Shown in pieces: positions 9,308 to 41,519 of a stretch of DNA of 41,519 bases. Position 1 is the first letter of the stretch. Every line of letters starts with the position of its first letter. The position numbers and the translations under genes are program-made. The notes under the pieces were generated by a model that ran no database searches, had not been told where the DNA came from, and saw only the letters and a list, made by a program, of their open reading frames with translations. The stretch comes from a phage, in the sequence record NC_093711.1. One strand, written 5' to 3'.

Positions 9308-9337
9308 TTGCACACCCCAATATAATAGGGTACTATT
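9308..9337 (+). promoter_or_regulatory. sigma70-like promoter TTGCAC-N17-TACTAT with palindromic operator AATAG-N4-CTATT (9324-9337)
   Basis: -35 TTGCAC at 9308-9313, -10 TACTAT at 9331-9336. The palindrome overlaps the -10. About 30 nt upstream of the 9365 start with a GAGGG Shine-Dalgarno. Confidence 0.5.
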
Positions 9338-11925: not shown

Positions 11926-11950
11926 AAAAGGCCCCGAAAGGGGCCTTAGT
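11926..11950. terminator. bidirectional rho-independent terminator
   Basis: GC hairpin GGCCCCGAAAGGGGCC flanked by an A-run and a T-run, between the convergent kinase gene (+) and major tail gene (-). Confidence 0.7.
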
Positions 11951-11951
11951 T

Positions 11952-13124
11952 TTATGCGTAGGTGATGCGCTGAATAACAATAGACGACTGGTACTGGTTA
12001 CCAGTAGCCTGGCCTTCGATGGACTGAGTGATTGACTCAGGCCCGCCAATCTCAGGTGTAACCGCGGTAAGTTCTGCACGTTTCAAGCTGAAAGACATAG
12101 CCCCGTTTACCCCCGCCAGAATAGAGTTAATCTCCACCTGCTGCTCGTTGATAAACTTCTGAATCATCGCCATGTCGTACAGCTTACCGGAGATGGAGAA
12201 GGTGTTAGCTGCTCGGCTACGCTCCACAAACGCTACGTTAGTGTTGCCGAGTTCGAACTGTGCGGACGCGCTGTTGTCGTTGGTGATGGTCAGGCTGTCG
12301 CAACGCAACGGCGTAGAACCGTCGAACACAGAAACATCGACCGAGGAGAATGGCTCGTCACCAAACGTAACAGAGGAGAAATCAGAACCAGACGGCTGCG
12401 TGGTGAGAATCTCCTGACTGCGACCGATGAACGGGAAGCTGCCAGTTACCATAGCGTTAACAGCCTGTTCGATGGTAAAACCAGAAACTTCCACGCCTTT
12501 GGTTAGTGTGTACGCGTCAGTCCCGCCGCACTGGCCTTTGTACCAGGTGAGAATAGAGAACGTCTTGCACTGGCTTCCCGTTTCCAGTTTATCCCCTGTC
12601 TTAGCGGCGGTAGTTACTGTCTCTGTGGTCAGGGTATGCTGGATACCCGCCCCGGTCACTACCAGTGCCTCTACTGCAGTTACGATAAACGGTTTTGCGT
12701 TGTCACCGGTTAAGTCGGTAAACGCAATCAGGTCGCCCACTTCAACGCCGTCAGAAATAAAGCTACCTTCGGCACGGGTAAAGGTCTTGCCTGCAGGCGC
12801 GACGGTAATTGATAGCCCGGTCAGAGAACTACCGGATTGCCATGTAGAGCCTAAAGCACCCGCCAGCCAGTCGTCCTGGCTTTTCGAGCTAAGCTCAATA
12901 GCGTATTCTCCGCTAACCTGCTTGTTACCGGTGCGGATTGACGTAGTTTCACGGCTGCCGTCCAGTTCGTTGGAGGTCAGCGTGTCGCGGGTAATGGCAG
13001 GAACGCCACCTGTGTTACGCAATGGCGACCAGACCGGGTTAGTCGGTGTTACGCCCGGGGTAGTTTCTGCCACATAGAATTGCGCAGTATTCGCGCCCTT
13101 AAAAGGAGTTGTAGCCATATTCAC
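11952..13124 (-). CDS. major tail protein
   Basis: 390-aa ORF in the canonical position after the tail terminator-like gene. Thr/Ser/Gly-rich, beta-rich composition. Confidence 0.55.
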   Translation of the reverse strand: MNMATTPFKGANTAQFYVAETTPGVTPTNPVWSPLRNTGGVPAITRDTLTSNELDGSRETTSIRTGNKQVSGEYAIELSSKSQDDWLAGALGSTWQSGSSLTGLSITVAPAGKTFTRAEGSFISDGVEVGDLIAFTDLTGDNAKPFIVTAVEALVVTGAGIQHTLTTETVTTAAKTGDKLETGSQCKTFSILTWYKGQCGGTDAYTLTKGVEVSGFTIEQAVNAMVTGSFPFIGRSQEILTTQPSGSDFSSVTFGDEPFSSVDVSVFDGSTPLRCDSLTITNDNSASAQFELGNTNVAFVERSRAANTFSISGKLYDMAMIQKFINEQQVEINSILAGVNGAMSFSLKRAELTAVTPEIGGPESITQSIEGQATGNQYQSSIVIQRITYA

Positions 13125-15136: not shown

Positions 15137-16123
15137 TCACTTGTCCGCGTCGGCGATTGCCAGAGTACCGAGGGTGTGCTTGTTCTCGGCAACAGCTTTG
15201 TCCCAGTTGGTCCCGGTGAACAGTTCTGCGTCCAGCGGAGATTTACCGCCGTTGGCGACATCCCAGCTATAGCCTTTCAGTTTCAGGCCGAAGCTGTAAT
15301 CCGCCTGCCAGGTGGTCTGGATGCGGGTGTTACCGTTGCTGGTATCAATGTTGCTGATAATGTCAGAAGCATTATCAACGATGATGCCGTTTGCAACTAC
15401 GGACAGGACCTTAGTCTTGTTCGGAGCACCGGCCTTGTTCGGAGCACCGGCCTCGTACAGCGCAGGAATGTCAGAGATTACGTAACGCTTGCCGAGAACA
15501 TCGACAACCATAACGTTACCGGCAACGAACAGCTGGTTTGCGTTAGTCAGCGCTTTATCTACCAGCGTGTGATAAGCAGCACCAGTCATGATGTCGGTAA
15601 TCAGCAGCTGAGACTGGTCGCCGAATTTAGCGTGGCTGTTGTTCAGCACGTTCAGGGACAGACCCACGGTTGCAGATACGTCGTTAACCAGCGAGGCCTG
15701 ACCAGATACCGCCGCAACAGCTGCGCCAACAGCGGTGTTGAGCTGGTCTGCTAACAGCGCATCGGAGAAGCCTTCGGAAATAGCACGAATCGCGCTTGCC
15801 GGGTCTTCGTTAAGCCAGGTCATTTGCGCAGGCTCGAACAGTACCGGTCCGAAGCCGCCAGCGACTTTAACGCCCACATGCTCGCCCTGAGTCAGCGCGG
15901 TAGCTGCCTGAGACTCGATAGCGGCGTAACGGTCAACGCGGCGTTTAGCGGAGGCAATCTGGTTAAAGAAAGACTCACGGGAGAAGTCACCGCGCCATGA
16001 AGCGGTAGACAGTACAATTGCGCCACCGGAGGCTGCGTTAAACTGGTCAGTTTTCTGGCCAAGCAGTTCGATAGTGGTACCGACGATATCGTCGTTATAA
16101 ACCTTCATATCTGACAGAGACAT
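15137..16123 (-). CDS. major capsid protein
   Basis: 328-aa ORF directly downstream of the scaffold gene and followed by a terminator. Contains a perfect 18-bp tandem duplication (15417-15452). Confidence 0.75.
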   Translation of the reverse strand: MSLSDMKVYNDDIVGTTIELLGQKTDQFNAASGGAIVLSTASWRGDFSRESFFNQIASAKRRVDRYAAIESQAATALTQGEHVGVKVAGGFGPVLFEPAQMTWLNEDPASAIRAISEGFSDALLADQLNTAVGAAVAAVSGQASLVNDVSATVGLSLNVLNNSHAKFGDQSQLLITDIMTGAAYHTLVDKALTNANQLFVAGNVMVVDVLGKRYVISDIPALYEAGAPNKAGAPNKTKVLSVVANGIIVDNASDIISNIDTSNGNTRIQTTWQADYSFGLKLKGYSWDVANGGKSPLDAELFTGTNWDKAVAENKHTLGTLAIADADK

Positions 16124-17099: not shown

Positions 17100-17331
17100 G
17101 GGTGATTACCTCTGATTTCGTCTTGCCTTCGTTATCAGCGGCGGCGGCCTTCGATTCATCCTGCTGCTGCCGTTGTGTTTTCTTCGCTAACTCAGCCAGC
17201 GCCTTCTGCTGTTGCTGCGAAACGAGATTCTCCCGGCCTTCGTTCCAGCCGATGCGGTATTGATAATAGCCGTGAGCGTATAACAGGATGATGAAACATG
17301 CTCCCGCTACGACAGTTGCTTTAAGATTCAT
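16945..17331 (-). CDS. i-spanin (Rz-like)
   Basis: 128-aa ORF with an N-terminal transmembrane helix (ATVVAGACFIILLYA) followed by a Gln/Lys/Ala-rich coiled-coil region. Confidence 0.6.
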   Translation of the reverse strand: MNLKATVVAGACFIILLYAHGYYQYRIGWNEGRENLVSQQQQKALAELAKKTQRQQQDESKAAAADNEGKTKSEVITREVVKYIKTPGRSVCTFDPERVQLKSRAVANANSIPGYDDDAAAVQTGTAK

Positions 17332-17355: not shown

Positions 17356-17375
17356 GCCCCGCTTTAAGGCGGGGC
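17356..17375 (-). terminator. terminator-like hairpin in the leader ~25 nt upstream of the Rz start
   Basis: Minus-strand GCCCCGCC-TTAAA-GCGGGGC followed by TTTACTT. Possible attenuator. Confidence 0.4.
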
Positions 17376-17410: not shown

Positions 17411-17600
17411 ATCTCAGTAAACCAGTTACTTTTTACACAAGCAATAGAGTATGGCCCTTCCGAACGCGTCAGCGTAACTACACTCAGGACTTACGTCCCG
17501 CTCCGTTACCTGCCCGCGCCGCGGTCGCTTGTTCATACTTCACAAGCTCAGGTGGAGCTTATCATATTTTTAGTGAAAAGTCAACTATTCGAATAGTTTA
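17411..17600. other. conserved non-coding element, copy A (paralogous to 29440-29630)
   Basis: ~190-bp intergenic block. A 34-nt stretch (17518-17551, CCGCGGTCGCTTGTTCATACTTCACAAGCTCAGG) is identical to 29550-29583. No conserved ORF on either strand. Confidence 0.6.
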
Positions 17601-17644
17601 TTCCGACATTTACAATTGAGTGGAATAACTGGAATAATCACAGG

Positions 17645-17668
17645 CACTAAAAAGCCCCTTTCGGGGCT
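17645..17668 (-). terminator. rho-independent terminator after the Ig-like protein gene
   Basis: Minus-strand hairpin GAAGCCCCGAAAGGGGCTT followed by TTTTT. Confidence 0.65.
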
Positions 17669-17673
17669 TCAGT

Positions 17674-18135
17674 TTATTCTGGCTTAGTAACCTTCGCCGC
17701 TTTACTGACGGCCTCTACCCCATCGGCATCGGTGACTTTAACGAAGTATTCACCGACAGCATTAACCGTCAGAGACAAAGCCTCTTCTGGGGCGTTTACC
17801 ACTTCCTTGCCGTCTTTGTACCAGGTCAACGCGTAAGGTGCTTTTCCCGCCTTAACTTCGACAGTGATAGTTGCGCTGCCGTCTGCCAGTTCAGCGTCCT
17901 GCGGTTGCGCAGAGAAGTACACATCACCAGCGTCCGCCAGATACGGAATTTCATAAAGCATACCCGCCGCGGACAGCGAAATACCGGTTTTATCTGCAAA
18001 CGGCATATCGTCTACAGGTGTACCTAGTACACTTTCGTCCCCAATAGACACCACGTTCTCCCCGGATCCGGACACGCGAGCAAACTGGACTACACGACGC
18101 GACGGCACATCAGTTACTTTGAAAAATCCCATCAT
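17674..18135 (-). CDS. Ig-like domain protein (possible head decoration protein)
   Basis: 153-aa ORF with a beta-rich C-terminal half. Lies between head morphogenesis and scaffold/capsid genes. Confidence 0.4.
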   Translation of the reverse strand: MMGFFKVTDVPSRRVVQFARVSGSGENVVSIGDESVLGTPVDDMPFADKTGISLSAAGMLYEIPYLADAGDVYFSAQPQDAELADGSATITVEVKAGKAPYALTWYKDGKEVVNAPEEALSLTVNAVGEYFVKVTDADGVEAVSKAAKVTKPE

Positions 18136-19211: not shown

Positions 19212-19247
19212 ACTATAAGAAAGCCCCTTTCGGGGCTATATGTGAAC

Positions 19248-20846
19248 TTACGGCTGAGTGGTGTCCTGTTGCTGCGCCGACTGCGGAATCTCCCCCGCCA
19301 CCTGGGTAACAGCACCTAACGGCAGCGGCGCATCCTCGATAGCGTTCTGAATGTCCTCGTCTGTCCAGTCAGTTACCCCCGCCTTACGCAACGCAGCATA
19401 GTAAGCGGTAGCCGGTAACAGGCCCGCGTTAATATCCGCCATCCACTGAGCGCGGTCCTGGGCGGTCATTGGTTGCAGGAAGAACTCCATGTTCAGTTTG
19501 AACTCAATTTCAGTGCCGTCGCTAAGCCCAAGCATACCAGCAACCCACTTCAGCGCATCGGTATACGCCATGCTTACGTTACGTGCGATTGTTGCCATGA
19601 CGGACGTATCAGCGCCGCGTTGCAGGCGTGCCGATTCCGCGGTGATTTGCTGCGTCGGGGTAATAAGCTGTGCACCAATCTGGATTGCCTGGTTCTCTTT
19701 ATCCAACATGTTCTGCTTGGCTAGGTTGTTCTCACCGGCCTGGACCAGAAACGCATTGCCGCCGTAACCGATGTTATGGCCAGAACGTGACCCCATACGC
19801 ACTCCGTGAGGGTTAGCTTCTTTCCACTGCGCCATGCTCATATTCTCACCGGGGGCGATGAACAGAGTAGGCTGGCCCACAACGAAGCTGGACTCCTCAT
19901 TGTCCGCGCTGTTGCGGAAGTGCCCGATATTAAGTTCAGCCAACGGCAGCAAAGGTGCATCGTCAGGGGTTGGGTCGTTATTTCCCGCGCCGATGAACGT
20001 GAACGGAATCACCCCGACCGGAATATTACCGAGTTTCGGGAATATTTCGATATAGCCACCTTCCGTCAGTGCACCTTTCTGGTTAAAGCGGTACAGACGC
20101 TGGCGATACTGGCCTTCGAAAATATCAAGGACTCGGTATTGCTCGCCGTAGTTGGGGCTGAACTCATCCGCGCCATCGGTGTACTCGTATTCCTCACGCA
20201 ATACAACCATAACCACACGATTAACAGACCCGACGCGCTGGAGACGCCAGTTGATGATATTCTCTGCGGTGTAGAAAGCGATTGTTGGGTTTAGTAAACC
20301 CTCGTTTTGCTCTGCCATGGTAGCTACTTCTACCGCGGGGGCGTCAACCAGCAAACCACCGCGACCAACGGCATCAATCTCATACAGAGTATCCTGTGCG
20401 TGCTGCCACAGGCCAACGCCCGACCCGTCACAGTTAGTGGTCAGGTATTCCATCTGAGACGGAATAATCATCTCGGGGTCTTTGCGCATTACGCTGCCGA
20501 CCATGCCTGAAAGCGTTCGCTTGGTGAAGTTGTAGCAAATTGCCCCCGCTTCGTATTCAGCCTGACGCTGGCGACCGTAAACCGGGTCCGGCTCGTTCTT
20601 ACTGACGTCACGTAGATACGATGTCAGGTCGCCAGAAAGCGCATGTCGCACCTTCTGCCACTTAGGGAAATACTCTTCGTACTGGCGGTGGCGGGTTTTA
20701 ACGTTCCTCCCTTTGTAGTAGATAGATGTCAGGTCGCCAGAAAGCGCATGTCGCACCTTCTGCCACTTAGGGAAATACTCTTCGTACTGGCGGTGGCGGG
20801 TTTTAACGTTCTGCCCTTGCCCTGCGTTAATGTTTGCGGAAACCAT
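19248..20846 (-). CDS. portal protein
   Basis: 532-aa ORF immediately downstream of the large terminase gene. The N-terminus carries a 105-bp (35-aa) in-frame tandem duplication. Confidence 0.8.
   Translation of the reverse strand: MVSANINAGQGQNVKTRHRQYEEYFPKWQKVRHALSGDLTSIYYKGRNVKTRHRQYEEYFPKWQKVRHALSGDLTSYLRDVSKNEPDPVYGRQRQAEYEAGAICYNFTKRTLSGMVGSVMRKDPEMIIPSQMEYLTTNCDGSGVGLWQHAQDTLYEIDAVGRGGLLVDAPAVEVATMAEQNEGLLNPTIAFYTAENIINWRLQRVGSVNRVVMVVLREEYEYTDGADEFSPNYGEQYRVLDIFEGQYRQRLYRFNQKGALTEGGYIEIFPKLGNIPVGVIPFTFIGAGNNDPTPDDAPLLPLAELNIGHFRNSADNEESSFVVGQPTLFIAPGENMSMAQWKEANPHGVRMGSRSGHNIGYGGNAFLVQAGENNLAKQNMLDKENQAIQIGAQLITPTQQITAESARLQRGADTSVMATIARNVSMAYTDALKWVAGMLGLSDGTEIEFKLNMEFFLQPMTAQDRAQWMADINAGLLPATAYYAALRKAGVTDWTDEDIQNAIEDAPLPLGAVTQVAGEIPQSAQQQDTTQP
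20620..20810. repeat. 105-bp tandem direct duplication inside the portal gene
   Basis: An 86-nt segment at 20620-20705 is repeated exactly at 20725-20810 (period 105 nt), duplicating ...KGRNVKTRHRQYEEYFPKWQKVRHALSGDLTS in frame. Confidence 0.85.
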
Positions 20847-27761: not shown

Positions 27762-27827
27762 CTCTGTCTCTCCTCTCGCTTGTGTAAATGAATAGTAGCC
27801 TATTCTATCTTAGTGTGCAAGTAAATT

Positions 27828-28144: not shown

Positions 28145-28345
28145 TCACACTTCTGGCGGCTCGGGTAACGGCATCCAGTGCGTCACGTACTTATCGTAGT
28201 GATTCCAGAAAGGCTTTCTCCCGTCATCAGGAACTATGTAATAATCGTGCTGAACTGCGTTATTTAACGTTTCATACACCAGGAACTCTTTATCCGTATA
28301 CCCATTACCCGGCAGCATCTCACTACACTTAATCCACTCACCCAT
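28145..28345 (-). CDS. DUF551-like phage protein
   Basis: 66-aa ORF with MGEWIKCSEMLP... and C-terminal THWMPLPEPP, a pattern recalled from DUF551-type phage proteins. Confidence 0.45.
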   Translation of the reverse strand: MGEWIKCSEMLPGNGYTDKEFLVYETLNNAVQHDYYIVPDDGRKPFWNHYDKYVTHWMPLPEPPEV

Positions 28346-28493
28346 ACCTCACACCTCTTTCAATCAAGGATTGCACACCAGCTTTCCACGCCCGCCACGC
28401 AAGACGCGTCTTAACGTTCAGGTACTCTTTCTTTGAACCCTTGTTAACCGGCAGACCCTCGACCACAGCCCACCGTTCAAATGCTTCTCTCAT
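28338..28493 (-). CDS. small hypothetical protein (~51 aa), not in the ORF track
   Basis: Coupled by overlapping start/stop to both neighbours. Confidence 0.3.
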   Translation of the reverse strand: MREAFERWAVVEGLPVNKGSKKEYLNVKTRLAWRAWKAGVQSLIERGVRYG

Positions 28494-29254: not shown

Positions 29255-29287
29255 AACCCTCACTCCTCTGTCTCGTTTCGATAAGTG

Positions 29288-29317
29288 AATAGTATCCTAT
29301 TATGTTGAGGTGCGCAA
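29288..29317 (-). promoter_or_regulatory. leftward early promoter TTGCGC-N17-TACTAT with palindromic operator AATAG-N4-CTATT (29288-29301)
   Basis: Minus strand: -35 TTGCGC (rc at 29312-29317), 17-nt spacer, -10 TACTAT (rc at 29289-29294). Operator overlaps the -10. Confidence 0.5.
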
Positions 29318-29439
29318 GAGATTAGTTACGTTGCCGTTGTGATTCTTTTGTTTAATGGGGTAGCGAGCGAAACGAAACGAACGTGGTGCCGAAGGCACCA
29401 AGAGTGAGTGAGTGAGCTTGCGGTTCTAACCTACGGCAA

Positions 29440-29630
29440 ATCAGTAACTTAGATAATTAGACAGGAATTACAATAGACTTTGGTCCTTCCGAATGCGCCA
29501 GCGAGACTCACTCCACACGTCGAGACGTGCTCGTTTCGCCTGCCGCGCACCGCGGTCGCTTGTTCATACTTCACAAGCTCAGGACGAGCTTACCATATTT
29601 CTTAGTAAAAGTCAATACCAATAGCATCTT
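29440..29630. other. conserved non-coding element, copy B (paralogous to 17411-17600)
   Basis: Lies between the leftward early promoter and the rightward promoter. 34-nt identity at 29550-29583 with 17518-17551; hairpins at equivalent positions. Confidence 0.6.
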
Positions 29631-32832: not shown

Positions 32833-32896
32833 AATAGTACCATATTAATTATTTTATAAAAGCCCATTGACAACCTGAATAGTTAGCTATTATAGT
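32833..32896. promoter_or_regulatory. divergent promoter/operator region with two AATAG-N4-CTATT-type palindromes
   Basis: Imperfect palindrome at 32833-32846 overlaps the -10 for the minus-strand regulator gene. A perfect palindrome at 32878-32891 sits in the plus-strand promoter TTGACA (32867-32872)-N18-TATAGT (32891-32896). Confidence 0.55.
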
Positions 32897-35463: not shown

Positions 35464-35493
35464 TTGACACCTGAATAGTAAGCTATTATAGTT
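35464..35493 (+). promoter_or_regulatory. promoter TTGACA-N18-TATAGT with palindromic operator AATAG-N4-CTATT (35474-35487)
   Basis: Upstream of the SSB-like gene. Confidence 0.5.
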
Positions 35494-38769: not shown

Positions 38770-39050
38770 CTAAAGAGGGCCGCGTACAGAAATACGCAAA
38801 GGAGCGATTCGAGGCCATCGGCGGCCTCGTTCGTAAGCTCTCCTACGAAGGACGTTCGGGTGCTCCTGACCTGCTGGTAATTCTCCCCGGCGGCATAGTC
38901 TGGTTCGTCGAGATGAAGAAAGACGAAAACACGAAGCCAGACCCGCACCAGATACGTGAGCACGAGCGGATGCGTAAACGTGGTGCGAATGTTTTTGTCG
39001 TTGGTTCGTTTAAACAGGTTGACGACCTAATAGCGAGCTATTATAGTTAA
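38766..39050 (+). CDS. VRR-NUC domain nuclease
   Basis: 94-aa ORF with PD-(D/E)XK-type core (GAPDLLVILPGG...FVEMK) and a downstream QIREHERMRKRGA motif. Confidence 0.55.
   Translation: MTKEGRVQKYAKERFEAIGGLVRKLSYEGRSGAPDLLVILPGGIVWFVEMKKDENTKPDPHQIREHERMRKRGANVFVVGSFKQVDDLIASYYS
39019..39047 (+). promoter_or_regulatory. promoter TTGACG-N17-TATAGT with palindromic operator AATAG-N4-CTATT (39029-39042)
   Basis: Embedded in the 3' end of the VRR-NUC gene, ~35 nt upstream of the 39081 start. Confidence 0.45.
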
Positions 39051-40827: not shown

Positions 40828-40831
40828 AGAA

Positions 40832-40858
40832 AAGGCCCCGTTTGGGGCCTTAGTTTTA
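40832..40858. terminator. bidirectional rho-independent terminator
   Basis: GGCCCCGTTTGGGGCC hairpin with flanking A-run and T-run, between the convergent plus-strand replication operon and minus-strand tail fibre gene. Confidence 0.65.
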
Positions 40859-41519
40859 TTTATCTTCTAGTGCTGCCAGCCTCTTCTCGAACTCGCGCAT
40901 CTTCTTACGCTGATAGGCAATCTCTATGAAGAACATCTGGTCCGCCCTAACCCCCCATCTGCCGCCGGGAGGGGATACTTGTACAGTCTGGCCATCTTCA
41001 TCAATATCATACGCGGCTTCAATTGAGTCGTAGCACAAGAAAGCATATTTACAATCGGTAGAATCTTTCTCCATAAGCCCATGGTCGACCAAGATGTCTC
41101 GCACATCTTGGGCTATCACACCGAAGTGTATCCTTGCAGTGTCACCCTTGATTGCTAGGCTTTCAAGCCACTTAAAAGATATTACATGTATATCCTCCCA
41201 TGCGGTAAGGAGTTGTCCCTCAATTTCCTCTTTGTTCGTCTTAAGTGTACCATCAGACGTGTTTATCGTACCGGTGGCCGCGTACACCGTAGTCCACCTA
41301 TTACCTGCCGAACCTAAAGACACTTGCGAGTCTAAGTAAGGAAGAAAATTGTTGTATGAGTAGAAGCCTCCTGACGCATACATAATAGCCCTGTTAGGCG
41401 TTGCATGGTTTGCCCCGTACAGTTGCAGCAACGCACCATCGGAACGGGATGCACCATCACCACCGCTAACTATCAGTCTTTGACCCGATGGGGTTTTAGT
41501 GGGGACTGTTTTTGAAATC
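40856..41519 (-). CDS. tail fibre C-terminal region with intramolecular chaperone domain (peptidase S74-like); partial, N-terminus beyond the window
   Basis: The frame is open from 41431 to the window edge. C-terminal pattern TSDGTLKTNKEEIEG...FGVIAQDV resembles the autoproteolytic chaperone domain of tail fibres and endosialidases. Confidence 0.55.
   Translation of the reverse strand, partial: ISKTVPTKTPSGQRLIVSGGDGASRSDGALLQLYGANHATPNRAIMYASGGFYSYNNFLPYLDSQVSLGSAGNRWTTVYAATGTINTSDGTLKTNKEEIEGQLLTAWEDIHVISFKWLESLAIKGDTARIHFGVIAQDVRDILVDHGLMEKDSTDCKYAFLCYDSIEAAYDIDEDGQTVQVSPPGGRWGVRADQMFFIEIAYQRKKMREFEKRLAALEDK

Follow-up and report, generated by a model that had tools for sequence, protein, structure and literature searches.

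Why does a phage carry the same stretch of non-coding DNA twice, in the same orientation, ahead of two different blocks of genes? The question is raised by the phage sequence record NC_093711.1, analysed here over a window of 41,519 nucleotides (nt), by which we mean the whole stretch of DNA. BLAST searches with either block assign it to the Kagunavirus type (K1G-like virulent siphoviruses of the Guernseyvirinae). An earlier note, made from the letters alone, had pointed to two intergenic blocks, here called copy A (17439-17584) and copy B (29468-29615), and had considered for them a structured RNA or leader, a small RNA gene, an activator platform or paired replication-origin hairpins. Our analysis answers that each copy is a unit composed of a promoter and a structured non-coding 5' leader, read from the minus strand. 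This conclusion is well supported by sequence comparison, which establishes the duplication, the promoter signature, the strand, the strong conservation and the conserved fold with its compensatory changes. Of the roles first proposed, a conserved structured leader heading two leftward transcription units is the one that holds.

The two copies can be aligned over about 190 base pairs (bp) and share, as had been reported, a 34-nt core, CCGCGGTCGCTTGTTCATACTTCACAAGCTCAGG, that is identical at 17518-17551 and 29550-29583. A gap-free stretch of 70 nt shows 87% identity between A and B, and a search for 21 nt of the core, with up to three mismatches allowed, matches the window at exactly two places (0 expected, from 100 shuffles). 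The claim that the element is non-coding was borne out: the GTG-started frame spans 19 amino acids in A and 41 in B, the ATG-started frame 36 in A and 19 in B, the swap in length being caused by indels of 1-2 nt, and no open reading frame (ORF) is common to both copies. Short 'hypothetical protein' coding sequences have been called across the leader in Shashou, Jersey, PVP-SE2, f2SE and other records (L001 3547-3657; L081 2041-2232; L089 225-344). Their frames differ from copy to copy and from one leader type to another, so that the calls are probably spurious, annotations that the present comparison would correct.

Scans for tRNA and tmRNA found none, and Rfam gave no matches in the whole window at the gathering threshold and only weak sub-threshold ones in permissive mode. 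The element had no BLAST match in 5,426 E. coli genomes, and scans of bacterial genomes and metagenomes with the core returned matches in phage contigs only. One core match (L048), which scores 10.8 bits with the model, was discarded: it is a 21-mer that lies in a coding region and is there by chance. A PLSDB entry of 44,086 bp labelled as an E. coli plasmid, CP088689.1, matches the element in two places with 99.3% identity and, going by its size and content, would seem to be a misfiled Kagunavirus genome.

The right-hand third of each copy holds the promoter, which on the minus strand reads TTGACT-17 nt-TGnTAAGCT. The motif TTGACT-N14-TGnTAAGCT is found in the window only at copies A and B, with 0.28 occurrences expected. 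To follow its conservation, we gathered 73 related elements from IMG/VR, metagenomes and GenBank, comprising 27 distinct promoter sequences. All 73 have the TG and the TAAGCT hexamer, 71 have TTGACT, and the spacer has a constant length of 17 nt but a sequence that differs at several positions; invariant hexamers with a variable spacer are the classical conservation pattern of a promoter. By sequence, the element displays the features of a sigma-70 extended -10 promoter, namely a -35-like hexamer, a 17-bp spacer, TGn, the critical T1, A2 and T6, and hexamers conserved against a varying spacer. TAAGCT agrees with the consensus at those three of its six positions only, which explains why a simple promoter scanner missed the element. 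Diverged promoters keep the form T-A-x-x-C-T together with TGn, as in the Jersey type (TTGACT-17 nt-TGtTACGCT) and the Cornell type (TGaTAACCT), and the PVP-SE2 record carries a predicted-promoter annotation at the element's position.

Setting the predicted start about 7 nt past the -10 hexamer places +1 at ~17549 in copy A and ~29580 in copy B. On this scale the identical core covers -2 to +32, and the duplicated unit extends from about -45 to about +150, so that the whole folded domain described below lies within its boundaries; the 3' half of the predicted ~200-nt RNA differs between the copies. The extended -10 promoter, the minus strand as the functional one and the placing of core and unit on the transcript are additions to the earlier note. 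Its AAGCTC/GAGCTT pairing, on the other hand, stands as an inverted repeat of both copies and finds no support as an RNA hairpin. The repeat, AAGCTC-N5-GAGCTT, has invariant arms and a varying 5-nt spacer (CACCT, GTCCT, AGCCT); because it runs from the -10 hexamer across the start site to +6 of the predicted transcript and is not kept in Jersey- or Cornell-type homologues, it is unlikely to be an RNA helix. Two candidate plus-strand promoters were rejected as well: TTCACA-18-CATATT, inside the element, is not kept in the Jersey type, and TTTACA-18-AATAAT, upstream of it, is the TTATTCC repeat region facing a terminator.

Fold, relatives and spread of the leader

Twenty-five distinct sequences in three classes (A, B1 and B2) were used as input for RNAalifold. 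The resulting layout consists of a 5' hairpin (P1), a linker of 0-2 nt, an irregular stem of about 70 nt (P2, P2a and P3) and a GGAAGGGCC tail, which across elements takes the single-stranded form GGAAGGGYC...UCUAUUG, giving a folded leader of about 92-95 nt. P1 is a 6-bp hairpin, GCUUGU-9 nt-ACAAGC, from +3 to +23, and corresponds to the CTTGT/ACAAG hairpin seen by the earlier note in both copies, which actually has six pairs (GCTTGT/ACAAGC). P2 is a long-range helix of CCG.GGYGC with GCRUUCGG, P2a an inner helix and P3 the apical hairpin. Standard pairs occupy 96.8% of the sequence-by-pair cells, compared with 30-46% when the 3' partners are slid, and none of 500 column shuffles reached the observed covariation score or the count of double-sided changes.

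The changes themselves are concentrated in recognizable positions. The P3 stem exists in at least five versions (GGGAC/GUCCU, CGGAC/GUCCG, GGUGC/GCACU, GGGGC/GCCCU and CACGU/ACGUG). Two of these are the position-equivalent hairpins in which compensatory change had first been suspected (on the minus strand, GGGAC-GTAA-GTCCT in A and CACGT-CTCG-ACGTG in B), and related phages supply at least three more, in agreement with that suspicion. In P2, column pair 32/89 goes from C-G to U-A in 9 of the 25 sequences, both states occurring within the A and the B1 lineages. A caveat on the covariation is that P1 is invariant among the 25 K-type sequences. Unconstrained folding gave the same two-domain shape in all ten representative K and Jersey variants; in these ten the sense fold is always the more stable, by 1 to 11 kcal/mol over the antisense, and the G.U pairs of P2 and P3 become A.C mismatches on the opposite strand. 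Both observations point to the minus strand as the functional one.

The gene pair that flanks copy A, coding for a Hoc-like protein and a spanin, is present in 488 phage records. The element of the type found here (K type) occurs in 180 of the records searched, with 95-99% identity, and a diverged Jersey-type version is present as a single copy in 269, mostly Salmonella Jerseyvirus. Searching related phages with a covariance model was the check that the earlier note had named, and the K-type model does find the Jersey version (E ~1e-8, unfiltered search). In the Jersey P1, UACGCU-uuc-AGCGUA, both partners differ from the K type in five of the six pairs, yet pairing is intact throughout. The outer P2, the GGAAGGGYC tail and the internal loops are shared with the K type, the Jersey inner helix being GGUCGCG/CGCGACC and its P3 GGGCGU/ACGCCC. 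At the copy A locus, phages of the Cornell, TS33 and Shemara types carry different GC-rich leaders, with a TGnTAACCT-like promoter and a hairpin near the 5' end; four Cornell/TS33-type leaders were too few for an unambiguous consensus fold. P1 starts 1-3 nt from the predicted 5' end in the K, Jersey and Cornell types alike, although its sequence is wholly different between them.

Conservation of the leader is also high relative to its surroundings. When Jerseyvirus FSL SP-101 is compared with the window, identity reaches 95, 100 and 91% in the 100-bp bins over the element and 60-91% in the genes on either side (spanin, Hoc-like, head morphogenesis), and the capsid region barely aligns, making the transcribed part of copy A the best-conserved stretch of its neighbourhood across genera. 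That a non-coding stretch should be the best conserved locally, and that it carries compensatory substitutions, argues for selection on the element as a folded RNA.

Copy B is much less widespread. It is present in 42 of the 180 K-type records (222 places in the 180 records), at a site that is a mosaic hot-spot. Phages without it, such as K1G, have in its place an unrelated near-consensus promoter (TTGACA...TAAAAT), which identifies copy B as an accessory acquisition. On the best explanation, the spanin/scaffold/major-capsid block of Guernseyvirinae had copy A as its promoter and leader ancestrally, and copy B is a secondary duplication that took the place of an ordinary leftward early promoter in the minority of Kagunaviruses that have it. 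Exchange of sequence between A and B would still go on: the copy at the A locus of a metagenomic phage (L010) carries exactly the interior (P2a and P3) of a B2-type copy at the B locus of another phage (L023:1610-1721), a match that at the sequence level shows gene conversion or recombination between the two loci. The distribution of the copies speaks against paired replication-origin hairpins, one of the roles proposed earlier, with copy B missing from 138 of the 180 relatives and copy A inside a structural operon.

Genomic setting

Gene order was taken from annotated relatives and PHROG scans. The minus strand, transcribed leftward, carries the small early genes, holins and endolysin, terminase, portal, head morphogenesis and the Hoc-like protein and, past copy A, the i-/o-spanin, scaffold, major head protein, head-tail and tail genes. 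Copy A thus lies inside the structural block, between the gene for the Hoc-like protein and the i-/o-spanin, scaffold and major-capsid genes, and 5 kb from the terminase genes. Copy B is at the far right of the leftward unit, in a divergent region facing plus-strand helix-turn-helix, primase-helicase and polymerase genes. The features of both loci are given in Table 1.

Table 1. Features of copies A and B and of the sequences around them, in window coordinates
Feature	Position	Strand	Basis or remark
Copy A, -35 hexamer TTGACT	17579..17584	-	Motif matches at the two copies only
Copy A, extended -10 TGaTAAGCT	17556..17564	-	TG 17564-17563, hexamer 17561-17556
Copy A, conserved leader domain	17439..17549	-	Covariance model 136 bits, RNAalifold, pair counts, unconstrained folds
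Copy A, P1	17527-17547	-	
Copy A, P2/P2a/P3 stem	~17456-17524	-	
Copy A, apical hairpin P3 GGGAC-GUAA-GUCCU	17486..17499	-	Covarying
Copy A, tail GGAAGGGCCAUACUCUAUUG		-	
Terminator-like hairpin GCCCCGC-cuuaaa-GCGGGGC, then UUUACUUAUC	17356..17375	-	Seven G-C pairs; after copy A
Copy-A-only repeats	17585..17637	-	TTATTCC twice (17622-17637), GGAATAA inverted (17598-17604), palindrome CTATTCGAATAG (17585-17596)
Terminator-like hairpin AAGCCCCGAAAGGGGCUUUUU	17649..17678	-	Closes the portal/head-morphogenesis/Hoc-like block; terminator annotation in phage Shashou
Copy B, promoter TTGACT-17 nt-TGgTAAGCT	29587..29615	-	Motif search and comparison of 73 elements
Copy B, conserved leader domain	29468..29580	-	Covariance model 113 bits; unconstrained fold has the architecture of copy A
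Terminator-like hairpin UGGUGCC-uuc-GGCACCA, then CGUUCGUUUCGUUUCG	29384..29400	-	After copy B
Separate sigma-70-like promoter TTGCGC-17 nt-TACTAT with palindrome AATAG-N4-CTATT	29277..29325	-	Between the copy B hairpin and the first early-left gene

Downstream of each copy comes a hairpin rich in G+C that ends in U-rich sequence; on the predicted transcripts it spans about +175 to +194 after copy A and about +180 to +196 after copy B. The first of these stands directly before the ribosome-binding site of the i-spanin gene (ATG at 17331). On the other side of copy A, the hairpin that closes the preceding block would insulate the promoter, and further terminator-like hairpins are found along the leftward unit at 19237, 17669, 15117, 11947 and 8650. 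No other promoter for the spanin, scaffold and capsid genes was recognizable at copy A, where there is no room between the hairpin and the spanin ribosome-binding site. Given the terminator-like hairpin upstream, these genes appear to depend on the copy A promoter, with transcription passing through the leader and the hairpin.

Directly upstream of the copy A promoter are the TTATTCC/GGAATAA repeats, with equivalents ahead of the promoters of the Jersey and Cornell types at this locus. From its sequence, this arrangement suggests that copy A is an activator-controlled late promoter, with the repeats as candidate activator or operator sites. Since the repeats are absent upstream of copy B and lie outside the duplicated segment, the earlier proposal of an upstream activator platform cannot apply to the part that the copies share.

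Beyond copy B, the ATG region of the first early-left gene (29263) is ~300 nt and one more promoter downstream, and K1G, which has no copy B, shows the same arrangement of a separate early-left promoter. The palindrome in that promoter is one of six AATAG-N4-CTATT occurrences in the window (9324-9337, 27791-27804, 29288-29301, 32878-32891, 35474-35487 and 39029-39042; 0.01 expected), each of which is part of a promoter of sigma-70-like sequence (TTGACA-17-TATAGT or TTGCAC-17-TACTAT) directed at its neighbouring genes. The motif fits the 'phage promoter' consensus described for Kagunavirus, tgAATAGTa-ccTATTat-T (PMC9825357). Annotations of the relatives examined list no RNA polymerase of phage origin, which makes the motif look more like the operator of a phage regulator than like a promoter for a phage polymerase. 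Around the hairpin downstream of copy B there is also a long-range inverted repeat formed by GTTGCCGT (29330-29337) and ACGGCAA (29433-29439); a related hairpin, TTACGGCAAC...GTTGCCGTAA, is found in Cornell-type leaders (L085-L088) and near the early-left region of K1G.

Some terminator hairpins are used more than once. The hairpin AAAGCCCCTTTCGGGGCT occurs at 17651-17668 and 19220-19237, and AAAAGGCCCCGAAAGGGGCCTT at 11926-11955 with a near-copy at 40830-40859, whose loop is GTTT instead of GAAA. This near-verbatim reuse falls at several boundaries of gene blocks, and some of the hairpins could be bidirectional.

Two structural genes of the window show features of their own. In the portal ORF (19248-20846, 532 amino acids), a 94-nt segment is repeated with 98% identity and a 105-nt period at 20620-20818, an in-frame tandem duplication of 35 codons or possibly an assembly artefact. 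The major head protein ORF (15137-16123) matches PHROG 247 and contains a perfect 18-nt tandem repeat at 15416-15451. Its region can barely be aligned to SP-101, and tblastn gave no match for it in K1G, SP-101 or Jersey. Judging by sequence, an exchange of the capsid allele has apparently taken place here.

Proposed function and its alternatives

Considering that the leader is promoter-proximal, that two co-oriented copies head gene blocks and that terminator-like hairpins lie downstream, the context fits antitermination. By analogy with the nut and put sites of other phages, we tentatively prefer a role in the cis-acting control of elongation. Each copy would be a portable unit, a host sigma-70 extended -10 promoter together with the first 110-150 nt of its transcript, read leftward. 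The nascent RNA would fold P1 from +3, then the P2/P2a/P3 stem, and leave the tail single-stranded. The folded leader would act in cis on its own RNA polymerase, either alone, as put does, or with a phage or host factor, as nut does, and the modified polymerase would pass the hairpin terminator ~190 nt downstream and the later terminator-like hairpins of the leftward operon. The start site, termination at the hairpins and their counteraction by the leader are parts of this scheme that we infer.

Several results weigh against such a role. The start site, the 3' ends and the read-through are all predictions; the -10 hexamer is weak and reliant on its TG extension; and the thermodynamic z-scores of the leader are modest (-0.8 to -3.1). 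Few independent substitution events lie behind the covariation, with about six sequence types and gene conversion between the copies. The absence of copy B from most relatives indicates that it is dispensable, and the early-left genes, having a promoter of their own, do not depend on it. The downstream hairpins of the B2, Jersey and Cornell types have a poor U-tract or none, so an immediate terminator is not a universal partner of the leader. PHROG and Pfam scans of ten small early ORFs revealed no Q, N or other antiterminator family, and a comparison of the window, K1G, SP-101 and Jersey revealed no protein that tracks the leader type. Neither copy contains a boxA (CGCTCTTA or TGCTCTTTA, at most one mismatch), of which the window holds 33 against 35 expected. 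Finally, the covariance model of the element (R1) has no match in the complete HK022 genome at E values up to 10, which speaks against homology with put.

Among annotated proteins, no Q-family member is listed for K1G, Shashou or Jersey. A basic protein of 51 amino acids (28338-28493) was tried as a factor accompanying the leader and rejected, its co-occurrence with leader type not being clean: it is found in 142 records, including celemicas, which has a Jersey-type leader, and in only 26 Salmonella records, whereas the K-type leader is present in 65 Salmonella-phage records. A classical attenuator or riboswitch was given low weight, as by eye the conserved domain and tail have no alternative pairing with the downstream hairpin; the spacer between domain and hairpin is variable and its sequence differs between types.

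The main alternative, which we consider doubtful, is that the same RNA serves as a 5'-untranslated stability or processing element. P1 would protect the scaffold/capsid mRNA from 5'-end-dependent decay and leave the polymerase unmodified, and the irregular stem could be an RNase III-type site or tune translation. The 5'-proximal position of P1 and its freely varying sequence between types are what would be expected if any stable 5' hairpin sufficed, the operon encodes the most abundant virion proteins, and in other leader types a U-tract is often missing from the hairpin beside the ribosome-binding site. Long stems with internal loops are a feature of RNase III substrates such as T7 mRNAs and the lambda N leader. 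A generic stabiliser, however, leaves unexplained the complete identity of the 34-nt core between A and B, the 95-100% identity across genera, and the internal loops and GGAAGGGYC tail common to the K and Jersey types; moreover, copy B is separated from its first gene by the additional promoter and the distance noted above.

We regard it as quite unlikely that each copy is a stand-alone small RNA gene of ~200 nt, from promoter to hairpin, whose product acts in trans or sequesters a protein while the downstream genes are expressed mainly from other promoters or by read-through. The similar predicted lengths for A and B1 (~195-205 nt) and the independent early-gene promoter after copy B agree with this proposal, and the lambda PR'-tR' unit does give an RNA of 194 nt. 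Against it, copy A offers its downstream genes no alternative recognizable promoter and has a terminator-like hairpin just upstream, the hairpins of the B2, Jersey and Cornell types are without a proper U-tract, conservation between A and B does not extend to the 3' half of the RNA, and no seed-like single-stranded region was identified besides the tail.

Still less probable is a site acting as DNA, whether a regulator bound to AAGCTC-N5-GAGCTT, a Q/qut-like sigma-dependent pause and loading site, or a single-strand initiation, origin or packaging signal. The invariant arms and varying spacer of the palindrome would suit a protein-binding site, Q-type loading and pause elements lie in the region of about -2 to +32 covered by the identical core, and the phage encodes its own primase-helicase. 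But compensatory changes, together with the asymmetry of the G.U pairs, point to a single strand, folded and of one polarity, and the palindrome, not kept in the Jersey and Cornell homologues, has arms already explained by the -10 hexamer and one arm of P1. The sporadic presence of copy B and the position of copy A, away from the terminase genes, do not fit an origin or packaging signal, and no Q-family protein was found among the ten small early ORFs. A recently duplicated promoter with a functionless transcribed part deserves hardly any weight, for although copy B is sporadic, occupies a mosaic hot-spot that in other phages holds an unrelated promoter of consensus type, and could be kept like copy A by gene conversion (L010 and L023), the transcribed part of copy A is the most conserved of its region across genera, its helices show compensatory change even in the deeply diverged Jersey type, and the duplication takes in the whole folded domain.

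We rate the element as a new RNA family, a promoter-linked cis-regulatory leader. The literature searched on these phages contains predicted promoters, the AATAG/CTATT motif and gene-level RNA-seq, and does not describe the leader; temporal RNA-seq of a related phage was reported per gene only, with nothing on the intergenic region of the element (PMC12645636). A bolder form of elongation control, which we hold to be unlikely, is that the leader represents a new family of polymerase-modifying antiterminator RNAs, independent in sequence of HK022 put, with which virulent siphoviruses of the Guernseyvirinae infecting E. coli and Salmonella would drive the capsid/late operon through multiple terminators, in which case the second copy in some Kagunaviruses would serve the early-left operon. 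If antitermination were the function, this would be a second, unrelated family of RNAs that reprogram bacterial RNA polymerase, in a list that is very short; if the leader acted alone on the host enzyme, phages would have in it only their second case of processive antitermination by RNA alone, and it would also be a compact, portable promoter-plus-leader part for engineering. Guernseyvirinae of the genera Kagunavirus and Jerseyvirus are among the phages most often isolated for E. coli and Salmonella therapy, and a promoter-plus-RNA unit before their capsid genes provides a concrete, testable handle on late-gene control.

Comparison with known systems

The structured 5' leaders and RNase III sites of phages (T7 R, the lambda N leader) and hairpins of the ompA type resemble the element in having a hairpin at the extreme 5' end and a long irregular stem with internal loops, placed in the untranslated leader of strongly expressed genes. 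Unlike the element, they are not normally ultra-conserved in sequence, nor duplicated as a promoter-linked unit.

The layout of the lambda late region (PR', the 194-nt 6S RNA and tR') agrees with that of copy A, where a promoter, an untranslated leader of ~195 nt and a hairpin terminator are followed by lysis (spanin) and head genes in one co-oriented unit with further terminators. Lambda Q, however, works through a promoter DNA site and a sigma-dependent pause and needs no folded leader, whereas the conserved feature here is a covarying RNA fold; nor do the ten small early ORFs include a protein of the Q family. With the lambda N system the element shares the presence of two copies of a short, identical, hairpin-bearing RNA segment just downstream of promoters, as in nutL and nutR, which are expected to make the polymerase terminator-resistant together with a phage protein. 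The element is much larger than nut, no N-like protein was recognized among the same ORFs, and the pentaloop of lambda boxB contrasts with the loop of P1, 9 nt long in K-type and 3 nt long in Jersey-type leaders.

The putL and putR sites of HK022 are two copies heading co-oriented operons, and putL has a two-stem shape that begins at +3 (PMC9378689), the predicted start of P1. As for put, there are here two related, promoter-linked copies, co-oriented with leftward gene blocks, and a non-coding element transcribed in cis, with a predicted two-stem architecture that has bulges and internal loops, and with terminator-like hairpins downstream. Inverted repeats and pairwise alignment did not place putL and putR in HK022 cleanly enough for a direct comparison. 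The two differ in length (~92 nt here, ~72 nt in put), in stem I, which is short here, a hairpin of 6 bp, and gives no hint of the triple helix of put, and in their phages, a virulent siphovirus as opposed to a lambdoid temperate phage, with one copy here heading a late structural block. Put suppresses terminators in cis without a protein factor, through the zinc-binding domain of the beta' subunit, and the element was compared with it by sequence and fold. The put-like antitermination first suggested for this locus therefore does not extend to membership in the put family, and stands as a reasonable functional analogy.

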